Below, piece by piece: positions 1 to 11,051 of a stretch of DNA of 11,051 nucleotides. The first letter of the stretch is position 1. The number at the start of each line of letters is the position of its first letter. The stretch is taken from the IMG/VR virus record IMGVR_UViG_2671180296_000007, positions 1 through 11,051 of that record; one strand, written 5' to 3'. The notes beneath the pieces are model-generated. The model ran no database searches. It was not told the DNA's origin and was given only the letters and a program-made list of their open reading frames with translations. The DNA is from a virus (lineage: Duplodnaviria; Heunggongvirae; Uroviricota; Caudoviricetes). A program made the position numbers and the translations under genes.

Positions 1-1242
1 ATGGCGAGAAAAACACCCCCATTAACCACAGTGCAGATCAAAGCAGCCAGACCAGCGCAAAAGGAGTACACCCTACAGGACGGCGGTGGGCTTTTTCTCC
101 TGGTAAAACCGTCCGGATCAAAACTCTGGCGATTTTCCTACTACCGACCATCGGACAAAAAAAGAATATTGCTGAGTTTTGGATCGCTTGAAGATGTTTC
201 CCTGGCTGATGCCAGAAAACGCCGTAGCGAGTACAGGACGTTAATCAGTGCCGGAACTGACCCGCAGGACCATGAGAAGAAAAAACGAGAGGCAGAGGCC
301 CGAAGACAAGGGAACACGTTCGAAAATGTGGCGGCGGCATGGTACCAGGTGAAAATCAGCCAGAATCTGGCCCCCAACACGATTAAAGACATCTGGCGTT
401 CGCTGGATAAATATGTATTCCCGTTCATCGGCAACACGCCAATAGATACCCTCACTGCCCGAAGGTTCGTTGAGGTGCTTACACCCATCAAGGAGCGCGG
501 CAACCTGGAAACACTCAAGCGGGTTTTACAGCGCGTTAATGAGGTAATGGATTACGCCGCCAACAGTGGGCTGATTGATGCCAATCCGGCTATGAATGTG
601 CGTAAGGCGTTCCCCTCCCCTGTAAAAAAACATATGCCAACAATCCGCCCCGAACAGTTGCCGGAGCTTATGCAGGCTTTATCCGTATCAGCAACAGAAC
701 GGCAGACCAGATTACTGATTGAATGGCAGCTACTGACTGTAACCCGTCCGGTTGAAGCATCGTCAGCACGCTGGGAAGAAATCGACATGGACGCGCAACA
801 ATGGACGATCCCCGCCGGACGCATGAAGATGCGGCGTGATCACGTTATCCCGCTTTGTAGTCAGGCTATGGCGGTACTGGAGGCCATGAAGCCAATCAGC
901 CACCACCGCGAGCACGTTTTCCCTAGCCTGAAAGACCCACGGCAGCCTATGAACAGCCAGACCGCCAACGCAGCATTGCGGCGAATGGGATTCGCTGGCG
1001 TGCTGGTGTCTCATGGATTACGCGCCATATTCAGCACAGCAGCGAACGAGGAAGGATTCGAGCCGGACGTAATCGAGGCCGCACTCGCACACGTGGACAC
1101 GAACGAGGTAAGGCGAGCATATAACCGAAGTAACTACCTGGAAAAGCGCGTGGTGCTTATGCGCTGGTGGGGGGAATTTGTAGAGGCCGCAGCAACCGGA
1201 GTGACCATAGCCAGTGGTAAAAGGGGTATCCGTGCCGTGTAA
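1..1242 (+). CDS. int: Tyrosine recombinase / phage integrase, P4-type
   Basis: Full ORF of 413 aa. The N-terminus (KEYTLQDGGGLFLLVKPSGSKLWRFSYY) is typical of the P4-integrase N-terminal domain, and the C-terminal half has the recombinase-like HGLRAIFST region and a tyrosine near the C-terminus (RRAYNRSNYLEKR). Recognised from family knowledge, not searched. Confidence 0.9.
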   Translation: MARKTPPLTTVQIKAARPAQKEYTLQDGGGLFLLVKPSGSKLWRFSYYRPSDKKRILLSFGSLEDVSLADARKRRSEYRTLISAGTDPQDHEKKKREAEARRQGNTFENVAAAWYQVKISQNLAPNTIKDIWRSLDKYVFPFIGNTPIDTLTARRFVEVLTPIKERGNLETLKRVLQRVNEVMDYAANSGLIDANPAMNVRKAFPSPVKKHMPTIRPEQLPELMQALSVSATERQTRLLIEWQLLTVTRPVEASSARWEEIDMDAQQWTIPAGRMKMRRDHVIPLCSQAMAVLEAMKPISHHREHVFPSLKDPRQPMNSQTANAALRRMGFAGVLVSHGLRAIFSTAANEEGFEPDVIEAALAHVDTNEVRRAYNRSNYLEKRVVLMRWWGEFVEAAATGVTIASGKRGIRAV

Positions 1243-1343
1243 CTGTACAAAAAACCAGTAAAAGCGATGCAAACCATGCTAAACCATCGTATAATCACCA
1301 TATACAGAGAGACCCGACTCTTGAAATTCAAGGAGTTATCCGA

Positions 1344-1586
1344 GTGTTTTTCAATGAAAAGGTATCCCCTGCCTATGGTGAAGGCCTTCAACTGGCCTTA
1401 ATGGCAAATCGTGAATTCTGGTCAACGTACGATCCGGAAGACAAATCAACTGCCCCCACAAAACACGAGGTAGTCAGTTTTTTGCGCTCGCGTGGCGCAT
1501 CGAAAAATCTGGCTGAAAGTATCGACAAGGTGCTGAGGCCCACCAGCCTTAAATGCGGTGGGCGACCTAAGAAGTGGAAACGGTAA
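1344..1586 (+). CDS. Hypothetical small protein (80 aa from GTG, or 61 aa from the ATG at 1401)
   Basis: ORF preceded by AGGAG (1331-1335) 8 nt before GTG 1344 and followed by a hairpin plus T-run. Basic C-terminal tail GGRPKKWKR. No family recognised. Confidence 0.35.
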   Translation: MFFNEKVSPAYGEGLQLALMANREFWSTYDPEDKSTAPTKHEVVSFLRSRGASKNLAESIDKVLRPTSLKCGGRPKKWKR

Positions 1587-1591
1587 TCACA

Positions 1592-1621
1592 ATAGCGGCC
1601 CCTTGCGGTCGCTATTTTTTT
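1592..1621 (+). terminator. Rho-independent terminator-like hairpin plus T-run
   Basis: Imperfect stem atagcggcc / ggtcgctat immediately followed by tttttttt, 6 nt after the stop of the 1344-1586 ORF. Confidence 0.4.
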
Positions 1622-1657
1622 GCAGAAAGAAAAGCGTAATCAATAAGATAAAAAACA

Positions 1658-1691
1658 GTGGGTACCGTTTTAAAACGGTGGGTACTGTTTT
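1658..1691. promoter_or_regulatory. Putative operator: perfect 16-bp palindrome within two direct 14-bp repeats
   Basis: ACCGTTTTAAAACGGT (1664-1679) is a perfect palindrome. It sits inside tandem copies GTGGGTACCGTTTT (1658-1671) and GTGGGTACTGTTTT (1678-1691), about 70 bp upstream of the alpA start. Confidence 0.4.
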
Positions 1692-1756
1692 TCCCGCCCT
1701 GCCCTGTTTTACCGTATTTATCACCGGAATACGCCGGATTAACGAGGTAAAACATA

Positions 1757-1963
1757 GTGGAAACAATCAGAAAAATTCTTACCCGTCAGGAAGTAAAAAA
1801 TATTCTGCGCATCAAGGCAGACAGTTCGCTACAGGACATGATCAACGCCGGAAAATTCCCGAAAGGCTTCAAAATCGGTCTGCGCCGTGTTGGCTGGTAT
1901 GAAGATGAAGTGCTGGCCTGGCTGAAAGAGCGCGAGGAAGAAGCGCGCGGAACGGCTGCGTAA
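1757..1963 (+). CDS. alpA: AlpA-family DNA-binding regulator (phage transcriptional regulator / excisionase-like)
   Basis: 68 aa with GTG start. Pattern LTRQEV..IL.I...S..DMINAGKFPKGFKIG.RRVGWYEDEVLAWL fits the AlpA signature. Position directly after int is the canonical P4/PICI arrangement. Confidence 0.8.
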   Translation: METIRKILTRQEVKNILRIKADSSLQDMINAGKFPKGFKIGLRRVGWYEDEVLAWLKEREEEARGTAA

Positions 1964-2110
1964 TGGTGTGAGGCGTAACGCGATGAACATAACAAAAAGC
2001 GCCCCGTTGCCGGAGCGCCCTTGCGAACAATTAACCTGCTGCGAAAAAAATGGATCAGTGCAGTGGAATTATATCAACCGTGTGACGAAGCGCCACAATT
2101 GCCGGATAAC

Positions 2111-2142
2111 AGGCAAAACAAAGGCCACCCGCTACGGTGGCC
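2111..2142 (-). terminator. Putative rho-independent terminator for the minus-strand small gene
   Basis: Stem ggccacc (2123-2129) / ggtggcc (2136-2142) with a 6-nt loop. On the minus strand it is followed by TTTGTTTTGCCT. Confidence 0.4.
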
Positions 2143-2245
2143 CCTCGACACAAGCTACACGTTATCCCCAACGCATGAGCATAGCCAACAATGCCACATT
2201 TGCGGCTGGTGGGCAAAGCGTAACCGGAAAAAAATTCCGGTGGAG

Positions 2246-2425
2246 CTACTCCTGCTCTTTGGCCTTGCGGCGCTGGCGGCGTTTGATCTCGCCGCGCATG
2301 GCTGCACTTATAAACTGCCCTGTACTTTCGCCTTCTTCTTTCACGTTTTCCATGCCTTCAATAATTTCATGGGCAATACGTGCAGTTACAGATTGTGATT
2401 TTGCATTCTTTGGACCTGTTGCCAT
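2246..2425 (-). CDS. Small basic-tailed protein (59 aa), putative transcriptional regulator of the divergent switch
   Basis: Start set at the internal ATG (2425) because a perfect AAGGAG lies 5 nt upstream on the minus strand. Sequence MATGPKNAKSQSVTARIAHEIIEG...KRRQRRKAKEQE. Divergent from the Icd-like operon with shared repeated operators. Function inferred from context only. Confidence 0.5.
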   Translation of the reverse strand: MATGPKNAKSQSVTARIAHEIIEGMENVKEEGESTGQFISAAMRGEIKRRQRRKAKEQE

Positions 2426-2445
2426 GTCTAACTCCTTATGTTTTT

Positions 2446-2540
2446 GGTGTAAGACAATATACACGAAAAAAAATTATTTTGAAGGGTTGACGTGTAAGAC
2501 ACTATTATTTTACATTGTGTCTTACACCTTGTTGATACAA
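2446..2540. promoter_or_regulatory. Divergent promoter/operator region with three copies of TGTAAGACAC
   Basis: Direct copies at 2447-2456 and 2492-2502; inverted copy at 2517-2527, giving a perfect 11-bp inverted repeat with 14-bp spacer. Candidate -35 TTGACG (2487-2492) and -10 TACATT (2511-2516) for the + operon. Candidate minus-strand -35 TTCAAA / -10 TATATT overlap the operator copy at 2447-2456. Confidence 0.45.
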
Positions 2541-2624
2541 GGTGCAGAAACGACGAAACCCGGCAGTGCGCTAACACTAACCGGGCTTCTAACCACCAAC
2601 GATAACGAGAGTATCGAGGTAGCT

Positions 2625-3239
2625 ATGTTAAATCATACCATACACCCGCAAGGGCGGGACTCGCACAACCTGAATAAATATATCTGGCGTTTTATCGCCC
2701 TGAGCACAGCACAACCGCGCGTGATTACCATTGAGGCCACCAGCGAACAGGAAGCACGCCAGAAAAACCAGTTGATCGCCATTGCCAGCCAGGGCTATGA
2801 TTTATCCGCACCAGCAAAATCTGGTGCCGGGATTGGCGTCCTGGTATTTAACGAAGCGCACAACACGCGCCCTGCGTGTTTTTTTGTGCCGGATAGTCAC
2901 ACCTTATCAATGGTGGGCTGTATGGGGGCGGAGCAATCCGCGCCGGGTTCTTCGTTAACCGGTTACGCCAACCCTGTACAGTCTACCGCCAGCGAAATTG
3001 GCGTTTCCTGCGGTGGGTTTATTAAACCTAACGAAGAGGCTGCCAACATGGCTACTATCCCTGCCCTCGTACATTCTCAAACTGCCTTTATCTGGCGCTT
3101 TATCATCTTTGGCGCGTCAGAATCCCAAATCATCCACGTAACCGCCTGGACGGAACGCGAAGCGCGTAGTCGTTGCCCGTCCGGTTGTGTTGCTGTATTC
3201 GCCGCCCGTATTCGTCAGGAGGTGCGCCATGTGCAATAA
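2625..3239 (+). CDS. Icd-like (host cell division inhibitor-like) protein with two copies of the Icd motif
   Basis: The track ORF 1968-3239 is trimmed to ATG 2625 (GAGG 6 nt upstream), because the upstream part overlaps the minus-strand gene and the promoter region. Two copies of the motif: YIWRFIALSTAQPRVITIEATSEQEAR (N-terminal) and FIWRFIIFGASESQIIHVTAWTEREAR (C-terminal). Family assignment is from memory of the Icd-like signature. Confidence 0.5.
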   Translation: MLNHTIHPQGRDSHNLNKYIWRFIALSTAQPRVITIEATSEQEARQKNQLIAIASQGYDLSAPAKSGAGIGVLVFNEAHNTRPACFFVPDSHTLSMVGCMGAEQSAPGSSLTGYANPVQSTASEIGVSCGGFIKPNEEAANMATIPALVHSQTAFIWRFIIFGASESQIIHVTAWTEREARSRCPSGCVAVFAARIRQEVRHVQ

Positions 3240-3699
3240 CACCCGTCCGGACGCAGCCGCCGAAGCTATCAGAACGCTGATGCACGCGCTGATTAATATT
3301 TCTGTTATCGCAGACATGGCGCATAAACACGCCACCAGCGAAACAGAATATGCCGGGGCTTTCGTTCCTCACTCACTGGCTGTTATGCAATTTAGTGCTG
3401 ATATGGCACTGAATGAGGCTAAAGCCATCCTGATTGCTGATTGTGAAAATGGGGGGGTTATGCGTGATGATCGTTTTAATGCCCTGAAACAGGAATTTTC
3501 CGGCGTATCTGATGATGCGAGTGATGCGCTTTCGTCAATATCCGAACTGATAAGAGCGGCCTTTTTCTTACTTGGCACGAAAGAAAATAAAACAACGGGG
3601 TTTGATGTACTAAATATCACCGCTGATTATGCGGAATATGTGGCAGAAGTCGATTTAAGAAAAATCCCGAATTGTCGCGGCATTAATAACGCTTCTTGA
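3229..3699 (+). CDS. Hypothetical protein (156 aa)
   Basis: ATG 3229 preceded by AGGAGG (3217-3222) with a 6-nt spacer; overlaps the end of the upstream gene by 11 nt, suggesting one operon. Acidic, alanine-rich. No family recognised. Confidence 0.6.
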   Translation: MCNNTRPDAAAEAIRTLMHALINISVIADMAHKHATSETEYAGAFVPHSLAVMQFSADMALNEAKAILIADCENGGVMRDDRFNALKQEFSGVSDDASDALSSISELIRAAFFLLGTKENKTTGFDVLNITADYAEYVAEVDLRKIPNCRGINNAS

Positions 3700-3777
3700 G
3701 CCTGTAATAAATGAATCGCAGGAAATAGAAACATTGCACGACAGATATAAAGAACAGCACACCGGAGAATAAAAATA

Positions 3778-4077
3778 ATGAAACTTAAATATTCTGGCTT
3801 AACTGCCAGTGGCAACACTCACCCTAAATTTACGCGCGGTGATATTTACCGCGACCAGTACGGCGGCACGGTAATGATTAAGGGCGTGGCGGGACGGTGC
3901 GTAACTTACCGCCGTGAAGGTTACGAATATGATTGCGTGATGCCTGTTTATCAGTTCCGGCGTGATTTTTCTCTGGTACAGGCAGCGCCCCGCAGTAAAC
4001 CAACCAGCAGGGAGAAAGCACGCGCCAATATTCAGAAGATGAAAACCATGATTAAAGGATTCAGGGGTAAAAAATGA
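3778..4077 (+). CDS. Hypothetical small protein (99 aa), translationally coupled to the primase
   Basis: GGAG 3762-3765 upstream of ATG 3778. The stop overlaps the primase start in an ATGA motif (4074-4077). Confidence 0.6.
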   Translation: MKLKYSGLTASGNTHPKFTRGDIYRDQYGGTVMIKGVAGRCVTYRREGYEYDCVMPVYQFRRDFSLVQAAPRSKPTSREKARANIQKMKTMIKGFRGKK

Positions 4078-5828
4078 AACTGGCACCGAACGTAAAACAG
4101 CAGTCACGCGGCATAAAACACAAAGAAACAGAAGTCATTATTTTTGCGGGTAGTGATGCCTGGTCACACGCGAAACAATGGCAGGAACATGATGCGCGTA
4201 TGGCCGGAGATAATGAGCCTCCTGTGTGGCTTGGGGAGCAGCAGCTATCCGAACTGGATAATCTGCAAATTGTGCCGGAAGGCCGAAAATCAGCACGCAT
4301 ATACAGGGCCGGATATCTTGCGCCAGTAATGATAAAGGCGATTGGCCAGAAGCTGGCGGCGGCAGGCGTACAGGATGCAAATTTTTACCCTGATGGTATG
4401 CACGGTCAGAAGGTGGAGAACTGGAGCGAATATCTGGCCCGTGAGCGCCAGAATCTTTCTGATGGTCTGGTCATTGAGCTTCCGGTAATGCAAAAGGCGC
4501 AACTTTCGCAGATGGCGGACAGTGAGCGCGCACAGATGCTTGCTGGTCGATTTGATGGCGTTTGTGTGCATCCGGAAAGTGAAATCGTTCACGTATGGCG
4601 CGGCGGGGTATGGTGTCCGGTCAGCACAATGGAACTTAGCCGCGAAATGGTGGCGATCTATTCAGAGCACAGGGCCACTTTCAGCAAGCGCGTAATCAAT
4701 AACGCCGTGGAAGCGTTAAAAGTTATTGCCGAACCAATGGGCGAGCCGTCCGGCGATTTGTTGCCGTTCGCCAATGGTGCGCTTGACCTGAAAACGGGGG
4801 AATTTTCCCCGCACACGCCGGAGAACTGGATCACCACGCACAACGGCATTGAGTACACGCCACCAGCACCTGGGGAGAACATCCGCGATAACGCGCCAAA
4901 CTTTCATAAATGGCTTGAGCACGCAGCCGGAAAAGACCCGCGCAAGATGATGCGTATATGTGCCGCGCTGTACATGATTATGGCGAACCGGTACGACTGG
5001 CAGATGTTTATTGAGGCCACCGGAGACGGCGGGAGCGGTAAAAGTACATTCACGCACATAGCCAGCCTTCTGGCAGGGAAACAGAACACGGTGAGCGCGG
5101 AGATGACATCGCTTGATGATGCTGGTGGACGTGCGCAGGTTGTCGGGAGTCGTCTTATCGTCCTGGCTGACCAGCCGAAATATACAGGCGAAGGAACGGG
5201 CATCAAGAAAATCACGGGCGGCGACCCCGTGGAAATAAACCCGAAATATGAGAAGCGTTTTACGGCGGTAATCAGGGCGGTGGTGCTGGCTACCAACAAT
5301 AACCCGATGATATTCACCGAACGGGCCGGAGGTGTGTCACGTCGTCGCGTAATTTTCCGTTTCGACAATATCGTCAGTGAGGCCGAAAAAGACAGGGAGC
5401 TACCGGAAAAGATTGCGGCTGAAATCCCTGTCATTATCCGCCGATTGCTGGCGAACTTTACCGACCCTGAGAAGGCACGGGCTTTACTACTGGAACAGCG
5501 TGACGGTGATGAAGCACTGGCAATAAAGCAACAGACGGATCCGGTTATTGAGTTTTGCCAGTTCCTGAATTTTCTGGAGGAAGCGCGCGGCCTGATGATG
5601 GGTGGCGGTGGTGATTCAGTGAAGTACACGACCAGGAACAGCCTTTATCGCGTCTATCTGGCGTTTATGGCGTACGCAGGCAGGAGCAAACCGCTAAACG
5701 TAAATGACTTTGGCAAGGCTATGAAGCCAGCCGCGAAAGTTTACGGACATGAATATATTACGCGGAAAGTTAAGGGAGTAACGCAGACTAACGCAATAAC
5801 AACAGACGAGTGCGACGCGTTTTTATAA
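4074..5828 (+). CDS. DNA primase/helicase, P4-alpha C-terminal type (D5_N-like domain plus SF3 P-loop NTPase)
   Basis: 584 aa. Walker A GDGGSGKST (about 5018-5046), Walker B-like LIVLADQP, downstream NNNP motif. Overall resemblance to phage/plasmid primase P4-family C-terminal domain proteins (PICI pri-rep type). Confidence 0.85.
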   Translation: MKLAPNVKQQSRGIKHKETEVIIFAGSDAWSHAKQWQEHDARMAGDNEPPVWLGEQQLSELDNLQIVPEGRKSARIYRAGYLAPVMIKAIGQKLAAAGVQDANFYPDGMHGQKVENWSEYLARERQNLSDGLVIELPVMQKAQLSQMADSERAQMLAGRFDGVCVHPESEIVHVWRGGVWCPVSTMELSREMVAIYSEHRATFSKRVINNAVEALKVIAEPMGEPSGDLLPFANGALDLKTGEFSPHTPENWITTHNGIEYTPPAPGENIRDNAPNFHKWLEHAAGKDPRKMMRICAALYMIMANRYDWQMFIEATGDGGSGKSTFTHIASLLAGKQNTVSAEMTSLDDAGGRAQVVGSRLIVLADQPKYTGEGTGIKKITGGDPVEINPKYEKRFTAVIRAVVLATNNNPMIFTERAGGVSRRRVIFRFDNIVSEAEKDRELPEKIAAEIPVIIRRLLANFTDPEKARALLLEQRDGDEALAIKQQTDPVIEFCQFLNFLEEARGLMMGGGGDSVKYTTRNSLYRVYLAFMAYAGRSKPLNVNDFGKAMKPAAKVYGHEYITRKVKGVTQTNAITTDECDAFL

Positions 5829-5839
5829 TTTTTTGTAAT

Positions 5840-6070
5840 TGCTGTCTACCCTGTCTACCTGAGTAAAGAAAAATACATTTAATTCAGTGCATTAAGTTAT
5901 GTAGATAGCCTTTTTTTACTATCTACCCACTATCTACCCTCTCTACCTGATTTTACCTGAATCAGACAGGGAGGTAGACACGGGGTAGATAGTGGATAAA
6001 AGCACTCTACCCCGCTGAAAGCCGCGCCATTACTGGCATGAGGGCCACTAAGGTAGATAAGGTAGACAAG
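5840..6070. repeat. Iteron array / putative origin of replication
   Basis: Hexamer core TCTACC on + at 5845, 5854, 5922, 5933, 5942 and 6006. Its complement GGTAGA at 5973, 5984, 6052 and 6061. Arms form an imperfect inverted repeat (ccactatctacc 5927-5938 versus ggtagatagtgg 5984-5995). AT-rich stretch 5872-5920 and a DnaA-box-like TTATCCACT (complement of 5991-5999). Located immediately downstream of the primase gene. Confidence 0.6.
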
Positions 6071-6116
6071 GGGAGGCACAACTCAAAACTTTTTAAACGA
6101 GGGGGTAAAAATAAAT

Positions 6117-6395
6117 ATGCACACTTCAGGGAAATTTAATAAATCACTCAAAAAACGCAGAGACAGAACAGAACCGAAATATCGCGCGTTAGACATGACA
6201 GAGCACGCTTTAAAGGTGGCAATCAGAACGATAGACCGCCACGCGGGGGAAGGATACGCGAAAGCACATCCCGACCTGATAAGCGCATTCATGACCACGA
6301 CGGCGGCAAATTTTGCCACGCTGACAGAGCGGGAGATTGCCGAAGCGGAACAGGTAACAACAATCAACGTTAAAACCGGAGAGGTGGAATCATGA
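6117..6395 (+). CDS. Hypothetical protein (92 aa)
   Basis: GAGGGGG upstream of ATG 6117. Stop overlaps the ssb start (ATGA at 6392-6395). No family recognised. Confidence 0.55.
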   Translation: MHTSGKFNKSLKKRRDRTEPKYRALDMTEHALKVAIRTIDRHAGEGYAKAHPDLISAFMTTTAANFATLTEREIAEAEQVTTINVKTGEVES

Positions 6396-6814
6396 CAGCA
6401 CAGATAGCCGCTTACGGGCGGCTGGTGGACGACCCGCAGGTAAAACAGACCAGCAAGGGCACACCGATGACGCTGGCGCGTATGGCGGTCCCCCTTCCGT
6501 GCAGCCAGGCAGATGACGGAACGGCGACGATGTGGTTATCCGTCCTGGCATTTGGCAGACAGGCCGAAGCACTGGAAAGGCACCGCAAGGGTGAACTCCT
6601 GAGCGTGGCGGGTAACATGCAGATCAGCCAGTGGACTGGGCAGAACGGAGAAACGCGGCAGGGCTGGCAGGTTATCGCAGACAGTGTAATCAGTGCGCGA
6701 ACGGCGCGACTGGGCGGCAAAAAAGGTCAACAGGGCCAGGCTACTGACGCGCTGAACAGGGCAAAACAACAGGCGGGGAATGATGATCCGTACGGGGATA
6801 ACATACCGTTTTAA
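6392..6814 (+). CDS. ssb: Single-stranded DNA-binding protein (SSB-like OB fold)
   Basis: 140 aa. Pattern GRLVDDPQVKQT..G...LARMAV...W..VLAFGRQAE......KGELLSVAG.....W....G..R follows the SSB OB-fold signature. Gly/Gln-rich linker and C-terminal DDPYGDNIPF, resembling the acidic ...DDDIPF tip of E. coli SSB. Confidence 0.8.
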   Translation: MTAQIAAYGRLVDDPQVKQTSKGTPMTLARMAVPLPCSQADDGTATMWLSVLAFGRQAEALERHRKGELLSVAGNMQISQWTGQNGETRQGWQVIADSVISARTARLGGKKGQQGQATDALNRAKQQAGNDDPYGDNIPF

Positions 6815-6829
6815 GCGACGAGTGACAGA

Positions 6830-6852
6830 AGCCGGAGCAATCCGGCTTTTTT
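6830..6852 (+). terminator. Rho-independent terminator
   Basis: Stem agccgga / tccggct with a GCAA loop followed by TTTTTT, 16 nt after the ssb stop. Confidence 0.6.
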
Positions 6853-6900
6853 ACGGGTCCTCCTAGCGGGGTGGGCCTGAACACGGGGCGGGAGGCGCGG
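6853..6900 (+). other. Degenerate cos-like sequence (cosQ-like ACGGGTCCT plus mutated cosN)
   Basis: acgggtcctcctagcggggtgggcctgaacacggggcgggaggcgcgg parallels the intact cos at 9294-9343 (acgggtcctttccggcatatggacctgttacggggcggcgacctcgcgcg). The 12-nt cohesive-end core is altered (GGGCGGGAGGCG versus GGGCGGCGACCT). Confidence 0.4.
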
Positions 6901-7032
6901 AAAAAAGCGCATTTTTGTGATTTTATCGTCATCATCATCATGAGCGTAATTTATTGTTTTTAATTGTTTTGATGCAAAAAAGATGATGTTTGTGGTTAAT
7001 TTTTGTTCGACATCTTTGCAGGCAGATAAAAA

Positions 7033-7069
7033 AGCCCGATAAGGTCAGAGGTGGCTTATCGGGCTTTTG
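7033..7069. terminator. Bidirectional terminator-like hairpin
   Basis: Stem agcccgataag (7033-7043) / cttatcgggct (7055-7065) flanked by an A-run upstream and a T-run downstream. Confidence 0.5.
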
Positions 7070-7100
7070 CATATGAGGCTTTTTGGTGCACTGACACACA

Positions 7101-7198
7101 TGATCGGGATCATCATTTCATAATTTGCAACACAACTCAACATCATTGCATAAAATGCAATCATGATTATAATCATAACTGGATGAACATCCAGTTAT
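7101..7198 (+). promoter_or_regulatory. Near-consensus sigma70-like promoter with nested palindromic operators upstream of the capsid operon
   Basis: -35 TTGCAT (7146-7151), 16-bp spacer, -10 TATAAT (7168-7173). Palindromes: TGATCggGATCA (7101-7112), TTGCATaaaATGCAA (7146-7160), ATGATTATAATCAT (7163-7176), and a perfect 11-2-11 ATAACTGGATGaaCATCCAGTTAT (7175-7198) over the predicted transcription start. Confidence 0.5.
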
Positions 7199-7229
7199 GA
7201 TTTTTTAAGTCAAAGAGGAATTTCTTACT

Positions 7230-7436
7230 ATGGCTGAAGAGAAAAAAGGCGGTGTTTCGGTGTACATAAGCCCCGAAATCGTGGAGGTGCTCAAGCAGCG
7301 CCACAAAAAAAACTATGAGGCTGGCGTGGCGGCTGGACTGGATCCGCTGATGACGCCGGAGCCGTCGATAGGTTCACTTGTACGCTCTTATTTACTTGCG
7401 GCGCTTGGGATGCATAAAAATTATGGGGGTGAATAA
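7230..7436 (+). CDS. Hypothetical small protein (68 aa), first gene of the capsid operon
   Basis: AAGAGGAA (7213-7220) upstream of ATG 7230. Stop overlaps the capsid gene start (TAATG). No family recognised. Confidence 0.55.
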   Translation: MAEEKKGGVSVYISPEIVEVLKQRHKKNYEAGVAAGLDPLMTPEPSIGSLVRSYLLAALGMHKNYGGE

Positions 7437-8491
7437 TGGCAGGCAAAGCAACGGCACTTAACACTAACCAGCTTTTCGCGTACCTGAATCGCGGGGATAT
7501 TGCGGAATTTAAATTCAGTCCGCTGTTTACCACGCTGTTTTTCCCGAACGTGGCGACATTCAACACCCAAAGCATCATGCTGGACACCCTGGACATTGAA
7601 GAGGTTACGATGTCGGCGTTTTGTTCGCCTATGGTGGGTAGTCAGGTCCAGCGCGATAAAGGGTACGAAACCAGCACGATTAAACCTGGATACATGAAGC
7701 CGAAGCACGAAATCGATCCAACGAAAACCATCATGCGTATGGCTGGAGAAGATCCGGCACAGCTTAATGACCCAACCTATCGCCGTATGCGCCTGATTAC
7801 TGGCAACATGCGCCGCCAGATAAACGCGATTAAAGCGCGCGTGGAATGGCTGGCGGTGAATGCGGTAACGACCGGAAAAAACATCATTGAGGGCGAAGGC
7901 ATAGAACGCTATGAAATCGACTGGAAGATACCGGAAAAAAACATCATAGAGCAGGCCAAAGGCCGTAAATGGTCCGAGCAGGACAAAGAAACCCACGATC
8001 CAATCTATGATATCGAGCTTTATGCGGATCAAGCAGGTTGCCCCTCCAACGTCATGATCATGGGCGCTGAGGTATGGCGAACGTTACGCAGCTTTAAAAA
8101 ATTCCGCGAACTGTACGATCTTTCCCGTGGTTCAGAGTCCTCCGCAGAGCTGGCCTGTAAAAACCTGGGCGAAGTGGTGAGCTTTAAAGGATATCTGGGC
8201 GATATTGCCCTTATCGTCTATTCCGGCAAATACACTGACAGCGACGGCACCGAAAAATATTTCCTTGAGCCTGATTTGCTGGTCCTGGGCAACACCAACA
8301 ATAAAGGGCTGGTGGCCTATGGTGCGATTATGGATCAGGAAGCGGTCAGAACGGGCGCAACGCAAAACATGTTTTACCCGAAAAACTGGATTGAGGACGG
8401 CGATCCGGCGATTGAGTACGTGCAGACGCACAGCGCACCGCAGCCGGTTCCGGCAGATATTCGCAAATTTGTTACCGTCAAAATTGGTTAA
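7436..8491 (+). CDS. Major capsid protein, lambda gpE family
   Basis: 351 aa. Matches to lambda E recalled from memory: FKFSPLFTTLFF (lambda FKFDPLFLRLFF), PGYMKPKHEI (PGYVKPKHEV), DPTYRRMR (DPAYRRRR), SFKGYLGDIALIVYSGKY (SYKGMYGDVAIVVYSGQY), YPKNW, and full-length collinearity. GGGGG RBS 6 nt upstream. Confidence 0.9.
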   Translation: MAGKATALNTNQLFAYLNRGDIAEFKFSPLFTTLFFPNVATFNTQSIMLDTLDIEEVTMSAFCSPMVGSQVQRDKGYETSTIKPGYMKPKHEIDPTKTIMRMAGEDPAQLNDPTYRRMRLITGNMRRQINAIKARVEWLAVNAVTTGKNIIEGEGIERYEIDWKIPEKNIIEQAKGRKWSEQDKETHDPIYDIELYADQAGCPSNVMIMGAEVWRTLRSFKKFRELYDLSRGSESSAELACKNLGEVVSFKGYLGDIALIVYSGKYTDSDGTEKYFLEPDLLVLGNTNNKGLVAYGAIMDQEAVRTGATQNMFYPKNWIEDGDPAIEYVQTHSAPQPVPADIRKFVTVKIG

Positions 8492-8502
8492 CGGGGGATT
8501 CT

Positions 8503-8838
8503 ATGGACACTCCATACATTGAGTTATTTGCAGGCAGTCAGCAGGTTGCCACGACGCTGGTACATTTTGCCGCTGATGCTGGCGTTATTCAGGAATTTAC
8601 CCCGCTGATGCTGGCGGACAATGGCGAATTTAAGCCGTGGGATGGTCAGGAATCTGGCAAGGCTGTTTATCTGACGGCGTATCCCGTGGACACGTCAACG
8701 CAGAAATCAGCACAGTGTTACAAGACGGGGATATTCAATATTGCCGCCGTTAACTGGCCTGAGAGCGTCGACACCGACGCGAAAAAATGTGCCGCCTTTG
8801 CGGGTTCTGGTGTATCTGTTCAGCCGCTGGCGCGATAA
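8503..8838 (+). CDS. Head decoration protein, lambda gpD family
   Basis: 111 aa. TPLMLADNGEFKPWDG and C-terminal YKTGIFNIAAVNWPESVDTDAKKCAAFAGSGVSV parallel lambda D (TPLMLDTSSRKLVAWDG ... [35 protein letters not shown]). Confidence 0.8.
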   Translation: MDTPYIELFAGSQQVATTLVHFAADAGVIQEFTPLMLADNGEFKPWDGQESGKAVYLTAYPVDTSTQKSAQCYKTGIFNIAAVNWPESVDTDAKKCAAFAGSGVSVQPLAR

Positions 8839-8851
8839 GCAGGGGGGAACG

Positions 8852-9265
8852 ATGGCAACGAATGAAAGTATCATGGCGCTACCGCTGGCGAGTAAATTTA
8901 AAGCTGAAGCGCGGGCAATGGCTGACAGATGTCTATCAACCTACGAAGCTATATATCAACTTAACAAACTGGAAGAACAGGACAAGCCGCGCGCTGATGC
9001 GATTATGTCGCTTCATGAATCTGACGACTATCAGCCGCTGTTACGTGCAATGGCAAACGTGCCTTGTATTGATGTTGATACGGCTAAAAACATCCTGAAC
9101 ATGACCATAGAACAGGAACGCCAGAAGGTTGCACCAGAGCTTACCGCAGCCTTTGAAAACTTTATGGACATGCACAGCCCACAAGCCGTATCAGCTGGCA
9201 TGGCATACGATGGCAGAAACCCGGGCGATGACGGCGACATTGATCGCATACTGAAAACCATCTGA
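8852..9265 (+). CDS. Hypothetical acidic protein (137 aa), last gene before cos
   Basis: The track ORF 8741-9265 is trimmed to ATG 8852, preceded by AGGGGGG. It is followed by a terminator and then cos. No family recognised. Confidence 0.55.
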   Translation: MATNESIMALPLASKFKAEARAMADRCLSTYEAIYQLNKLEEQDKPRADAIMSLHESDDYQPLLRAMANVPCIDVDTAKNILNMTIEQERQKVAPELTAAFENFMDMHSPQAVSAGMAYDGRNPGDDGDIDRILKTI

Positions 9266-9271
9266 GACAAG

Positions 9272-9293
9272 GCCGGAGAAATCCGGCTTTTTT
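9272..9293 (+). terminator. Rho-independent terminator
   Basis: Stem gccgga / tccggc with a GAAA loop followed by TTTTTT. Nearly identical to the terminator at 6830-6852. Confidence 0.6.
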
Positions 9294-9500
9294 GCGGGTC
9301 CTTTCCGGCATATGGACCTGTTACGGGGCGGCGACCTCGCGCGTTTTCACTATTTATGAAAATTTTTCGGGATCCATGTCCGGTTTCTCTGCAAGTTAAC
9401 CATATGAAAAATATAAAAACATGCTTTCCATGAACCGGACATGCGCAAAAAAACAGACACTAAAACCGGACATCGTACCCGTTAACCGGAAGTGTGCAAA
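9294..9500 (+). other. Lambda-type cos site, forward orientation (cosQ-like, cosN, candidate cosB)
   Basis: cosQ-like GGGTCCTTTCCGG (9296-9308). GTTACG then the 12-nt cohesive-end sequence GGGCGGCGACCT (9326-9337). Downstream TTTTCACTATTTATGAAAATTTTTCGG closely matches the lambda left end (CGCGGGTTTTCGCTATTTATGAAAATTTTCCGG). Candidate terminase-binding repeats AACCGGACAT at 9433, 9464 and 9484, with an inverted copy at 9374-9384. Confidence 0.8.
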
Positions 9501-9699
9501 AATCACACGCATTGCTGCGCGTGATTAACAATTTATCGGCTTTACTGTTCTGTATAGGCTGGGTGGCGTCATGCCGTAGCCGTTCTCCGTGCCAGCATGG
9601 AATAATCCGTAGTTACAGAGCGGTAAAGTTAAAAATCACTTTCTGTTACGCCATCAAATACGCGATACAACAACCATGTGTTTTTACAAAACCATTTGA

Positions 9700-9898
9700 T
9701 ATCATTGAATTTTTTCACATTAATGACATCAAAATACATCGTAAGGTTGTTGTATTTATTTTATTTTATTTTTACCTTACTTATCAATTAGATATACCAA
9801 ACAATTAAACAACAACCACCCCATCAAAAAATCTCATAAATAGCGAAAAACCGCGAGGTCGCCGCCCCGTAACGGGCCATAATTCCTGGAAGGACCCG
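9700..9898 (-). other. Second lambda-type cos site, inverted orientation (cosQ-like, cosN, different candidate cosB)
   Basis: On the minus strand: cgggtccttccagg ... gttacgGGGCGGCGACCTcgcggtttttcgctatttatga. The cosN core is the complement of 9856-9873. The inward-facing flank carries GGTTGTTGT-type repeats (minus-strand reading), not AACCGGACAT. Confidence 0.7.
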
Positions 9899-9931
9899 AC
9901 GACACCAGACTATCAGAACGATGGGGGCACA

Positions 9932-10213
9932 ATGACAGAAGCCGAACTACTGCGATTAATCCGTCGCGTTGCCGGAATCAGCCAGCAGGCTGACGAACAG
10001 GCCACGCAGCCGGACAGCGTGACCGCAGAAAATTATGTTCGTGTGGTTGCTGAGGTGATGCACCGTGATGGTATCCAGCTTAATGATGCGGATATGCGCG
10101 ACATACGGATCCGCGTTCTTGAAATGCTGGCCTACCGTCGCCGGATACAGACGTACAGGGAAAAAGCCAAAATAACGTACCAGTGGAAGAAGCCGGAGCG
10201 GTTACGGCGGTAA
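9932..10213 (+). CDS. Hypothetical protein (93 aa)
   Basis: GGGGG 5 nt upstream of ATG 9932. First ORF downstream of the cos region. No family recognised. Confidence 0.55.
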   Translation: MTEAELLRLIRRVAGISQQADEQATQPDSVTAENYVRVVAEVMHRDGIQLNDADMRDIRIRVLEMLAYRRRIQTYREKAKITYQWKKPERLRR

Positions 10214-10233
10214 CTTGCTGAAGTTAAAGCATA

Positions 10234-10332
10234 ATGCAAATTTGCACTCTGGCCTAACCCGTTAATATTTCAGCAAAGTGCAAATTTGCGTTCTGTAGCT
10301 GGTGGCTGGCAGAATGTAAATTTACATTCTGG
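10234..10332. repeat. Three tandem about 19-bp repeats, each containing a 12-bp palindrome
   Basis: aTGCAAATTTGCActctgg (10234-10252), gTGCAAATTTGCgttctg (10279-10296), aTGTAAATTTACAttctgg (10314-10332). They lie in a convergent intergenic region between the stops of the flanking genes. Confidence 0.6.
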
Positions 10333-10336
10333 TGAT

Positions 10337-10636
10337 TTAATCATCTGATTTACCCAGCCCGTACCGGATTACCGTACAGTGAGCGCCATCGCTACCGATA
10401 CGCACATCAAAGCGGGGTTCGCGCACTTTCACGCGGTACAGGATCCCATCATTTACCATAGCGTTTAACGTTCGTCGGGTTGCCTCTATGTGATATCGCT
10501 GATATTCGGAACCATAGAGCAGCACTGTCACACCACGAACATCAAAAGGCGGATCTCCGGCCTCCACCCGCACCCAATCGCGATATTCAGGTTTGTAAAG
10601 TTCAAGAATCTGTTTTTTGTGCCTGGTCATTCTCAT
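10337..10636 (-). CDS. Hypothetical protein (99 aa)
   Basis: The track ORF is trimmed to ATG 10636 (MRMTRHKK...), which has AAGGAA 7 nt upstream on the minus strand. The longer N-terminal extension is hydrophobic and low-complexity and lacks an RBS. No family recognised. Confidence 0.5.
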   Translation of the reverse strand: MRMTRHKKQILELYKPEYRDWVRVEAGDPPFDVRGVTVLLYGSEYQRYHIEATRRTLNAMVNDGILYRVKVREPRFDVRIGSDGAHCTVIRYGLGKSDD

Positions 10637-10742
10637 GTGTGATTCCTTATTGTGGGACAGTACTGTCATACAATAAGCTATGAGGGAAATTATCAAAAGA
10701 ACGGAAACCAACCATTCAGATTTAACAGGTATCAATGGGATT

Positions 10743-11051
10743 ATGCTTATGGTGCATGATGACAAAGCGGAAGAACTGGAAGCGAAAGGTTTATGGCGAC
10801 GGGCGGCTAATCGCTGGGGTGAGTTACTGAAACAGGCGGCAAGTGATGAAGCGCGTCAGTATGTAACGGAACGACGAACGGCATGTATCCGGAAGGCAAC
10901 CATAACCCGGGAACCGGAAAGAGACCTGATTTGTGCCATAAGAACCGCCGCCACAAAAACACTAACGGACATGGGGATCGACCTGAAAAAAGAAGATCCA
11001 CTGCGGGGCATTCAGCACGGACATACAAAGCGGGATAAACGCAGGAAGTAA
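10743..11051 (+). CDS. PerC-family transcriptional regulator-like protein
   Basis: N-terminal AEELEAKGLWRRAANRWGELL recalls the conserved PerC/Pch-family motif, from memory and not searched. Start is uncertain (10680, 10743 or 10749); 10743 is chosen to leave room for a divergent promoter. The perfect palindrome GACAGTACTGTC (10656-10667) lies in the intergenic region. Confidence 0.45.
   Translation: MLMVHDDKAEELEAKGLWRRAANRWGELLKQAASDEARQYVTERRTACIRKATITREPERDLICAIRTAATKTLTDMGIDLKKEDPLRGIQHGHTKRDKRRK

Follow-up and report, generated by a model that had tools for sequence, protein, structure and literature searches.

Why should a phage-dependent island carry two cos sites that face each other? 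The question is raised by an 11,051-nt stretch of Caudoviricetes DNA (positions 1 to 11,051 of IMG/VR record IMGVR_UViG_2671180296_000007; hereafter the window), which by its genes is clearly a member of the EcCICFT073 family of Gram-negative cos-type phage-inducible chromosomal islands (PICIs). Two complete cos sites of lambda type (cosQ-cosN-cosB) lie in it in convergent orientation. We propose that they probably form a dual-helper packaging cassette, in which the family's Rpp protein and its private cosB have been lost and two complete helper-type cos sites point toward each other. A convergent cos pair is already published for the EcCICFT073 family; new are the rpp-less variant, its two helper-type cosB, which are assignable to two classes of small terminase subunit (TerS), and the occurrence of both cassette orientations in complete genomes.

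Both copies were registered on the 12-nt cohesive-end sequence and aligned to the joined ends of lambda and to relatives. The layout is as follows.

9290-9306, plus strand: left cosQ-like element TTTTGCGGGTCCTTTCC, island "Q1" type, placed by the alignment registered on cosN, with cosQ as in Fig. S5 of PMC6092414
9295-9367, plus strand: left arm of an inverted repeat (cosQ, cosN and the conserved stretch preceding cosB)
9326-9337, plus strand: left cosN 12-mer GGGCGGCGACCT, identical to lambda
9338-9473, plus strand: cosB module "B2" (phage PhiR12 type), from homology to PhiR12_1, a match to the published cos2 and its repeats
9533-9561, minus strand: 29-nt antisense match to the last bases of rppA and the downstream spacer, 97% identical to positions 3075-3103 of the CFT073 locus (L003); the end of the block common with CFT073 cos2
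9557-9626, plus strand: what is left of the 3' end of rpp (final 22 codons and stop), from tblastn of RppA residues 123-144 at 9558-9623 and from blastn
9647-9825, minus strand: cosB module "B3" (lambdoid prophage type), from homology to the cosN-terS interval of four prophages
9826-9898, minus strand: right arm of the inverted repeat
9856-9867, minus strand: right cosN 12-mer, identical to lambda; flanking symmetric bases at both sites
9888-9904, minus strand: right cosQ-like element GTCGTCGGGTCCTTCC, island "Q2" type, placed by the alignment registered on cosN

The arms of the inverted repeat are 73 nt long, 82% complementary and 458 nt apart. Within them lies the 22-mer GTTACGGGGCGGCGACCTCGCG, of which the window has exactly two copies (9320-9341 on the plus and 9852-9873 on the minus strand; none expected from 200 shuffles). 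At both sites, GGGTCC of cosQ lies 30 nt upstream of cosN in the same orientation and in lambda register, and about 35 nt after cosN (CGCGnnTTTTCnCTATTTATGA...) are conserved with lambda; beyond this stretch, the copies diverge from lambda and from each other. The preliminary description had proposed two intact inverted lambda-type sites with GGGTCC and an identical cosN core. This is borne out by the 22-nt core and by the alignment it had suggested with lambda-like cos regions and other island copies, in which both sites match lambda cosQ-cosN and the following 35 nt base for base. Packaging would head rightward from the left site and leftward from the right site. The cosN 12-mers are 518 nt apart, and the interval has 37% G+C compared with 50% for the window. 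It had been described as about 480 bp of AT-rich non-coding DNA; its composition and the absence of an annotated gene from the interval in relatives agree with this, but it is longer and contains the rpp remnant. Cutting at both cosN would free 542 nt, overhangs included, instead of the roughly 530 bp given before.

The left cosB is that of a phage. B2 is 96% identical over 136 nt to Escherichia phage PhiR12_1, where the homologous stretch starts at cosN and ends 48 nt before Nu1, and it has the sequence of the published cosB of EcCICFT073 cos2. A repeat at the R3 position (CATGTCCGGTT, 9375-9385) lies at bp 50-60 from the cos end. The AACCGGACAT repeats run in the opposite sense to it, with exact copies at 9433 and 9464 and a degenerate copy, AACCGGAAGT, at 9484; an inverted copy, ATGTCCGGTT, is located at 9376. 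The earlier count of three copies plus one inverted holds for the inverted copy, but only two of the three are exact. No match to the integration host factor (IHF) consensus WATCAANNNNTTR was found in the left cosB, even with one mismatch.

The right cosB is built from another repeat family, confirming that the inward flanks differ (AACCGGACAT on the left, GGTTGTTGT on the right). GGTTGTTGT is present three times in the window, at 9745 on the plus and at 9667 and 9809 on the minus strand. Read on the minus strand, the site has R3 (GGTTGTTGT) at 9817-9809 (bp 51-59), R2 in the opposite sense at 9745-9753 and R1 at 9675-9665, with an AT-rich spacer, which is lambda's layout of R3>, R2<, R1>. For I1, between R3 and R2, the IHF consensus finds only one-mismatch matches, at 9782 and 9795. 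B3 is 73-97% identical to the cosN-terS interval of prophages in E. coli O145 RM10425 (L007), CFSAN061770 (L008), Ceylon31 (L009) and LH50-c (L015), with all three repeats kept, and the homology between island and prophages ends just after the last repeat (R1). All four non-island copies that were opened belong to lambdoid prophages with the order lysis genes, cos, terS, terL, head-tail joining gene and portal. Among 5,426 complete E. coli genomes, 299 contain B3. In strain LH50-c, a window-type island coexists with a prophage in which a 97% identical cos-B3 precedes terS.

Compared with lambda cos (R3-I1-R2-R1; PMC9026076), the window thus shares the 12-nt cohesive end, the position of GGGTCC, the 35 nt after cosN and a first repeat at bp 50-60, as well as, at the right site, three repeats with the middle one inverted. 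It differs in the repeat sequences, in having two sites rather than one and in the absence of terS after either site.

The phage neighbors of B2 and B3 belong to two TerS groups. From about residue 65 on, the proteins of both groups are near-identical (91% identity at the DNA level from about nt 200), whereas their N-terminal DNA-binding domains cannot be aligned. The B2 group starts with MATQTEVARHLSLTDRQLRRLQKL... and the B3 group with MASSIGISVQAFDKWGVPPVERRGRE..., while MASSIGISVQAFDKWGV... is also given as the N-terminus of the latter type. Because unrelated DNA-binding domains are joined to near-identical C-termini, this mosaic reads as the classical pattern of two packaging specificities served by the same large subunit. 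Adaptation to two helper terminase specificities, one of the readings offered in the preliminary description, is supported by this comparison, as each cosB stands beside the terS of a different lambdoid group. As a separate observation, eight of the 11 genomes with a close window-type cassette have at least one extra locus matching B2 or B3, compared with any match in only 438 of the 5,426 genomes. These loci may reflect co-residence with matching helpers, which is confirmed for LH50-c only; one of the additional loci in GF4 belongs to a second island. Two further candidates for B2 or B3 carriers were rejected. The prophage in the CFT073 locus, whose cos corresponds to the published phi4 sequence, matches only in the 34-nt core, and a supposed B2-type prophage (H214) is a canonical rpp island.

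How does this relate to the published member of the family? EcCICFT073, the prototype, was described in 2018-2019 with two functional sites, cos1 and cos2 (Fillol-Salom et al., ISME J 2018, PMC6092414; Mol Cell 2019, PMC6739421), which corrects the earlier premise of one cos per known cos-type PICI. A plasmid into which either site has been cloned is transduced by lambda and phi80; in the island, deletion of cos1 lowers transfer, deletion of cos2 raises it and the double deletion abolishes it (PMC6092414). Terminase cleavage to 12-nt cohesive ends is known at these homologous sites through genetics only. The cosB of cos1 is recognized by a complex of RppA and TerS (PMC6739421). According to these papers, no phage cosB was identifiable in EcCICFT073; they assign cos2 no role, and the words "inverted" and "orientation" are absent from text and supplements in connection with cos1 and cos2 (PMC6092414, PMC6739421). 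In the later literature that was searched, no paper discussing cos2 was found. EcCICFT073 and the window have in common the island family, the flanking genes, the convergent cos pair and cosQ/cosN, and the left cosB of the window is that of the published cos2. In contrast, CFT073 has rppA and an Rpp-specific cosB at cos1, while the window has neither and retains the 22-codon remnant only. Moreover, the window has a second phage-type cosB, B3, and carries B2 at the left instead of the right site. The comparisons suggest that the published cos2 carries a cosB that real lambdoid phages use, though not lambda or phi80.

This conclusion bears on the whole family. Since the second site carries the cosB of real lambdoid phages, the family would combine two kinds of site, a "private" one for the island's own Rpp or TerS and a "public" one of helper type. 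The window would then be the extreme case: it lacks the private kind and carries a public site for each of two TerS classes.

To place it among its relatives, cassettes were compared segment by segment with BLAST; FL and FR denote the conserved left and right flanks, and (rc) marks a module on the minus strand. In CFT073, the order is FL - cos(+) - B1 - rppA - B2(rc) - cos(-) - FR, and in E. coli Ch1 (L002) FL - cos - B1' - rpp - B3(rc) - cos - FR. The window and eight other genomes, such as CEA601S (L001), read FL - cos - B2 - 29 nt of the rppA tail in antisense and 70 nt of the rpp 3' end in sense - B3(rc) - cos - FR. For a wider survey, the 93-aa gene of the right flank served as anchor for 128 loci from metagenomes and IMG/VR, of which 55 had both cos sites resolved; a search of the genome contigs with the 93-aa protein gave a single locus. 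The pair is convergent, with a forward followed by a reverse cos, in 55/55 of these loci and in 8/8 hand-picked ones including the window, that is in 63/63. The 55 sampled loci comprise the following types.

B3'-terS with a B5 right site: 16 loci
B3'-terS with a B4 right site: 13 loci
B3'-terS with a phi4-like right site: 2 loci
B1-rpp with B2: 10 loci
B1-rpp with B3: 7 loci
Window type (B2 ... B3 with the rpp remnant): 4 loci
Window type, flipped: 2 loci
CFT073 type, flipped: 1 locus

In the usual layout, the left site adjoins rpp or terS, as a phage cos adjoins Nu1, while the right site has a repeat-bearing cosB (B2, B3, B4, B5 or phi4-like) with no specificity gene beside it. In the window type, both sites are of the kind without an adjoining specificity gene. 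The terS-bearing relatives, such as the islands of E. coli MS20654 and Nissle 1917, share the flanks and the convergent pair with the window; they differ from it by a full small terminase beside the left site and by a right-site cosB of B4, B5 or phi4-like type. In MS20654 (L013, 2654-3532) and in the Nissle 1917 island (H278), this terminase has 180 aa, and the left cos that it adjoins has a B3-like cosB. The B5 module has CAGATCC repeats in a lambda-like R3/R2/R1 layout. An automatic classification had labeled 16 right-hand cosB as lambda; inspection by eye rejected this label, as identity is 77-81% over only 57 nt, and the group was renamed B5.

Outside this family, SaPIbov5 and SaPIbov4, taken here from their descriptions, resemble the window in that the island carries the helper's cos, so that unmodified helper terminase packages the island. 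They differ as an unrelated Gram-positive system of HNH-dependent cos phages. SaPIbov4 also has two putative cos sites (PMC6092414).

How were rpp and its cosB lost? The residues 123-144 of RppA are the sole significant tblastn match in the window, so that no intact rpp is present, and beyond the shared 35 nt no match to the Rpp-type cosB (B1) was found in the window. By its sequence, the stretch 9533-9630 looks like the junction of a flipped CFT073-type cassette with a Ch1-type cassette. The remnant itself is a small inverted duplication, with 29 nt in antisense abutting 70 nt in sense and imperfect inverted repeats of about 16 nt at 9536-9551 and 9612-9628. A 104-aa open reading frame (ORF) at 9494-9808 was rejected as a gene, since it has no family matches, does not share the frame of the rpp remnant and lacks annotation in relatives.

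A second lineage reached a comparable state by another route. It comprises three genomes, 2012C-4221 (L005), MFDS1022581 and GB089; MFDS1022581 is the window's closest backbone relative (97.8% identity). At 3127-3532 of L005, a complete PhiR12-type cosB comes first, then an in-frame fusion of the opening 28 nt of Nu1 with the 3' half of rpp, annotated as a 69-aa protein, and then B3. Judged by its sequence, this fusion is a direct footprint of cos-cosB capture from phage to island, and dual helper-type cassettes arose at least twice independently, once as the window type and once as the L005 type.

The cassette also occurs in the opposite orientation. In STEC2018-607 (L004) and JNEC-KY203, a window-type cassette is inverted relative to the flanking genes, and GF4 contains two islands with cassettes in opposite orientations. 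WP4-S17-ESBL-08 (L010) encodes an RppA identical to that of CFT073 (WP_000565609.1) at the same phoQ-side insertion site, on the other strand. Left-hand junctions in the complete genomes distribute as follows.

FL-cos-B1-rpp (canonical): 69 of 5,426 genomes
FL-cos-B2, all: 31 of 5,426 genomes
FL-cos-B2, window type (H1-H9): 9 genomes
FL-cos-B2, L005-like: 3 genomes
FL-cos-B2, apparently flipped CFT073 type: 15 genomes (L010 was opened, the other 14 are assigned from identical junction matches)
FL-cos-B2, other: 4 genomes
FL-cos-B3, all flipped window type: 3 of 5,426 genomes

The exchange point in L004 lies within the identical GTTACG-cosN-CGCG core. Further, Q2-type cosQ is found on both arms in 15/63 islands (L010, L022 and 13 others), and the cosN variant GGGCGTCGACCT is common to both arms in four islands (L027 and three more). 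Because exchange points vary and both Q2-type cosQ and GGGCGTCGACCT can occupy both arms, the sequences point to homologous recombination and gene conversion between the arms, that is to general recombination and their concerted evolution. Junction sequences are identical within each flipped group, so the flipped forms probably go back to few events rather than to a fast switch.

How would a cassette with two opposed sites be packaged? From lambda, in which cosB-bound TerS is needed to initiate and a correctly oriented cosQ-cosN to terminate (PMC9026076), we infer binding, cutting and transfer by the two helpers. A PhiR12-type small terminase would bind the AACCGGACAT repeats, cut the left cosN and package rightward round the concatemer to the next left site. 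Analogously, a B3-type TerS (MASSIGISVQAFDKWGV...) would bind the GGTTGTTGT repeats, cut the right cosN and package leftward to the next right site. With a cosQ of its own, each site should also be able to terminate packaging. The opposite site would be met backwards, within the first 0.5 kb, and would be ignored by the translocating terminase. Packaging from either inverted site would transmit both sites, the site used being rebuilt on circularization. With direct repeats, a run from the downstream site to the first site met would delete the interval and one cosB. The pair may thus always be convergent because the inverted layout alone keeps both sites, whichever starts packaging. The arms would recombine or undergo gene conversion and occasionally flip the cassette with neither site damaged, and flipping would be harmless because exchange within cosN again yields two complete sites.

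If correct, the dual-helper reading predicts which prophages mobilize which islands, and such islands often carry virulence or defense cargo. It also names candidate helpers: PhiR12-type phages and B3-type prophages, which are common in Shiga toxin-producing E. coli.

Several points weigh against this reading. The left cosB is without the phage's last repeat (R1), as the homology to PhiR12_1 stops at bp 148. B3 was seen in prophages only; in the collection of isolated phages, the query of right cos plus B3 was matched only in the shared cos core. Deletion of cos2, which is of B2 type, raised transfer by lambda and phi80 (PMC6092414), so a non-matching second site can come at a cost; this gain fits a site that is useless and slightly harmful under a non-matching helper. 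The variant cassette without rpp is rare (14/5,426 genomes and 6/55 sampled cassettes). Finally, it contains clear recombination debris and could be a tolerated by-product.

The last point, already listed as a recombination scar in the preliminary description, is the strongest rival, although we regard it as unlikely. It holds that the cassette is debris of recombination between phage and island or between islands in the cos core, with at most one site in use and the other neutral or mildly harmful. The rpp remnants in both senses at 9533-9626 and the Nu1'::rpp' fusion in L005 speak for such a history, as do the rarity of the variant and the increase in lambda transfer upon cos2 deletion. Recombination does account for the rpp and Nu1 remnants, but it leaves the universality and completeness of the pair unexplained. 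The second site is complete, with cosQ, cosN and well-spaced repeats, in 63/63 cassettes, among which cosB is of five types or more. The similarity to prophages runs just past the last R element and no further, which argues that whole functional R3-R2-R1 modules are kept. Moreover, transfer of EcCICFT073 is abolished by the double and not by a single cos deletion.

A role as decoy is considerably less probable. Here, the helper-type cos sites would titrate or misdirect terminase, for example by the 542-bp double cut, and would replace the lost Rpp, a known interference factor; multicopy replicating islands would indeed offer many phage-type cos sites. This idea stems from inference only, and double cutting would ruin the island's own packaging substrate. 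In addition, the TerS of one helper should recognize only one of the two cosB types.

Could terminase itself also operate the cassette? As an addition to the dual-helper reading, the 542-bp fragment might be re-ligated either way or swapped with that of a co-resident island, as it would have two identical cohesive ends, each complementary to both flank ends. We consider this as doubtful as the decoy. Flips of the L004 type, with the exchange in the GTTACG-cosN-CGCG core, are compatible with such shuffling, whereas those of the L010 type, with Q2 on both arms, are not; there, ordinary recombination or gene conversion certainly operates. Clean cutting and re-ligation by terminase as the sole flipping mechanism is rejected by the Q2-type cosQ on both arms in L010, L022 and 13 further islands. 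If true, terminase would be a site-specific "cassette shuffler" that diversifies the helper range.

Bidirectional in situ packaging (lateral transduction) of the chromosome on both sides of the integrated island, another of the earlier suggestions, is very improbable. The sites do point opposite ways, toward and through each other, but a cos packaging run can finish only at a correctly oriented cosQ-cosN about one head-length away (PMC9026076), and the flanks of the examined loci showed no such terminal sites. For excision, the island is equipped with int and AlpA, and nothing was found in support of lateral transduction.

Least credible of all is an assembly artefact or a phase-variation switch by a dedicated invertase: inverted repeats do flank a segment that occurs in both orientations, but the arrangement of the window recurs in 14 complete E. 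coli genomes and in metagenome and IMG/VR contigs, which disposes of the concern that the inverted copy might be missing from other assemblies, while no invertase or recombinase gene of the Hin/Gin/Fim kind lies in or next to the cassette, exchange points vary and flipped forms look clonal and infrequent.

The genes around the cassette complete the picture of the island. According to Pfam, the window encodes a tyrosine integrase (1-1242), AlpA (1757-1963), an Ash-domain protein, DUF4222, a D5-type primase (4074-5828), SSB, a lambda E-like major capsid protein (7436-8491), a D-like decoration protein (8503-8838) and PerC, in an order syntenic with EcCICFT073 as located in the CFT073 genome. Own terL, portal, protease or head-tail connector genes, as expected of a capsid-forming PICI (cf-PICI), were not found among the window ORFs. 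As in the EcCICFT073 family, both cos sites are bracketed by two genes, the one that follows the decoration gene and the one of 93 aa.

8852-9265, plus strand: left flank gene, whose CFT073 homologue directly precedes cos1 (phrog_1999, E=5e-62)
9932-10213, plus strand: right flank gene of 93 aa (phrog_1561), always just beyond the right cos

The left flank gene, in RefSeq "phage head-tail connector" or hypothetical, is always located just upstream of the left cos, and the left flank is 95-98% identical across all islands compared. Directly after this c1501-like gene, a hairpin (GCCGGA-GAAA-TCCGGC followed by T6, 9273-9297) was recognized by eye; it extends into the beginning of the left cosQ. 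It is absent from the output of the terminator scan, and the promoter and terminator scans gave nothing relevant to the cos feature above shuffled background.

Further observations concern the right end and more distant loci. A 142-aa antisense ORF (10337-10765, minus strand) has no family matches. The gene for the PerC-family regulator starts at 10680 on the plus strand and runs off the window (10680-11051); in L001 and other relatives, PerC is instead encoded ahead of the capsid gene. L001, a complete related island, ends about 1 kb past the 93-aa gene. In the second Ch1 island (L011, 9100-9700), the right cos has a 13-nt cosN variant, GGGCGTCGAACCT, followed by a terS 5' fragment, and the left cosN is without the exact lambda 12-mer. 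Homologues of the 93-aa gene in 58 of the 128 metagenome and IMG/VR loci stand in another setting, with no lambda-type cos within 1.9 kb upstream. In Shigella flexneri (L017, 1354-4282), a homologue with 88% identity directly follows HNH, terS (Terminase_4) and terL; this is an HK97-like or cf-PICI-like packaging module, and its upstream sequence is common to several of those 58 loci.

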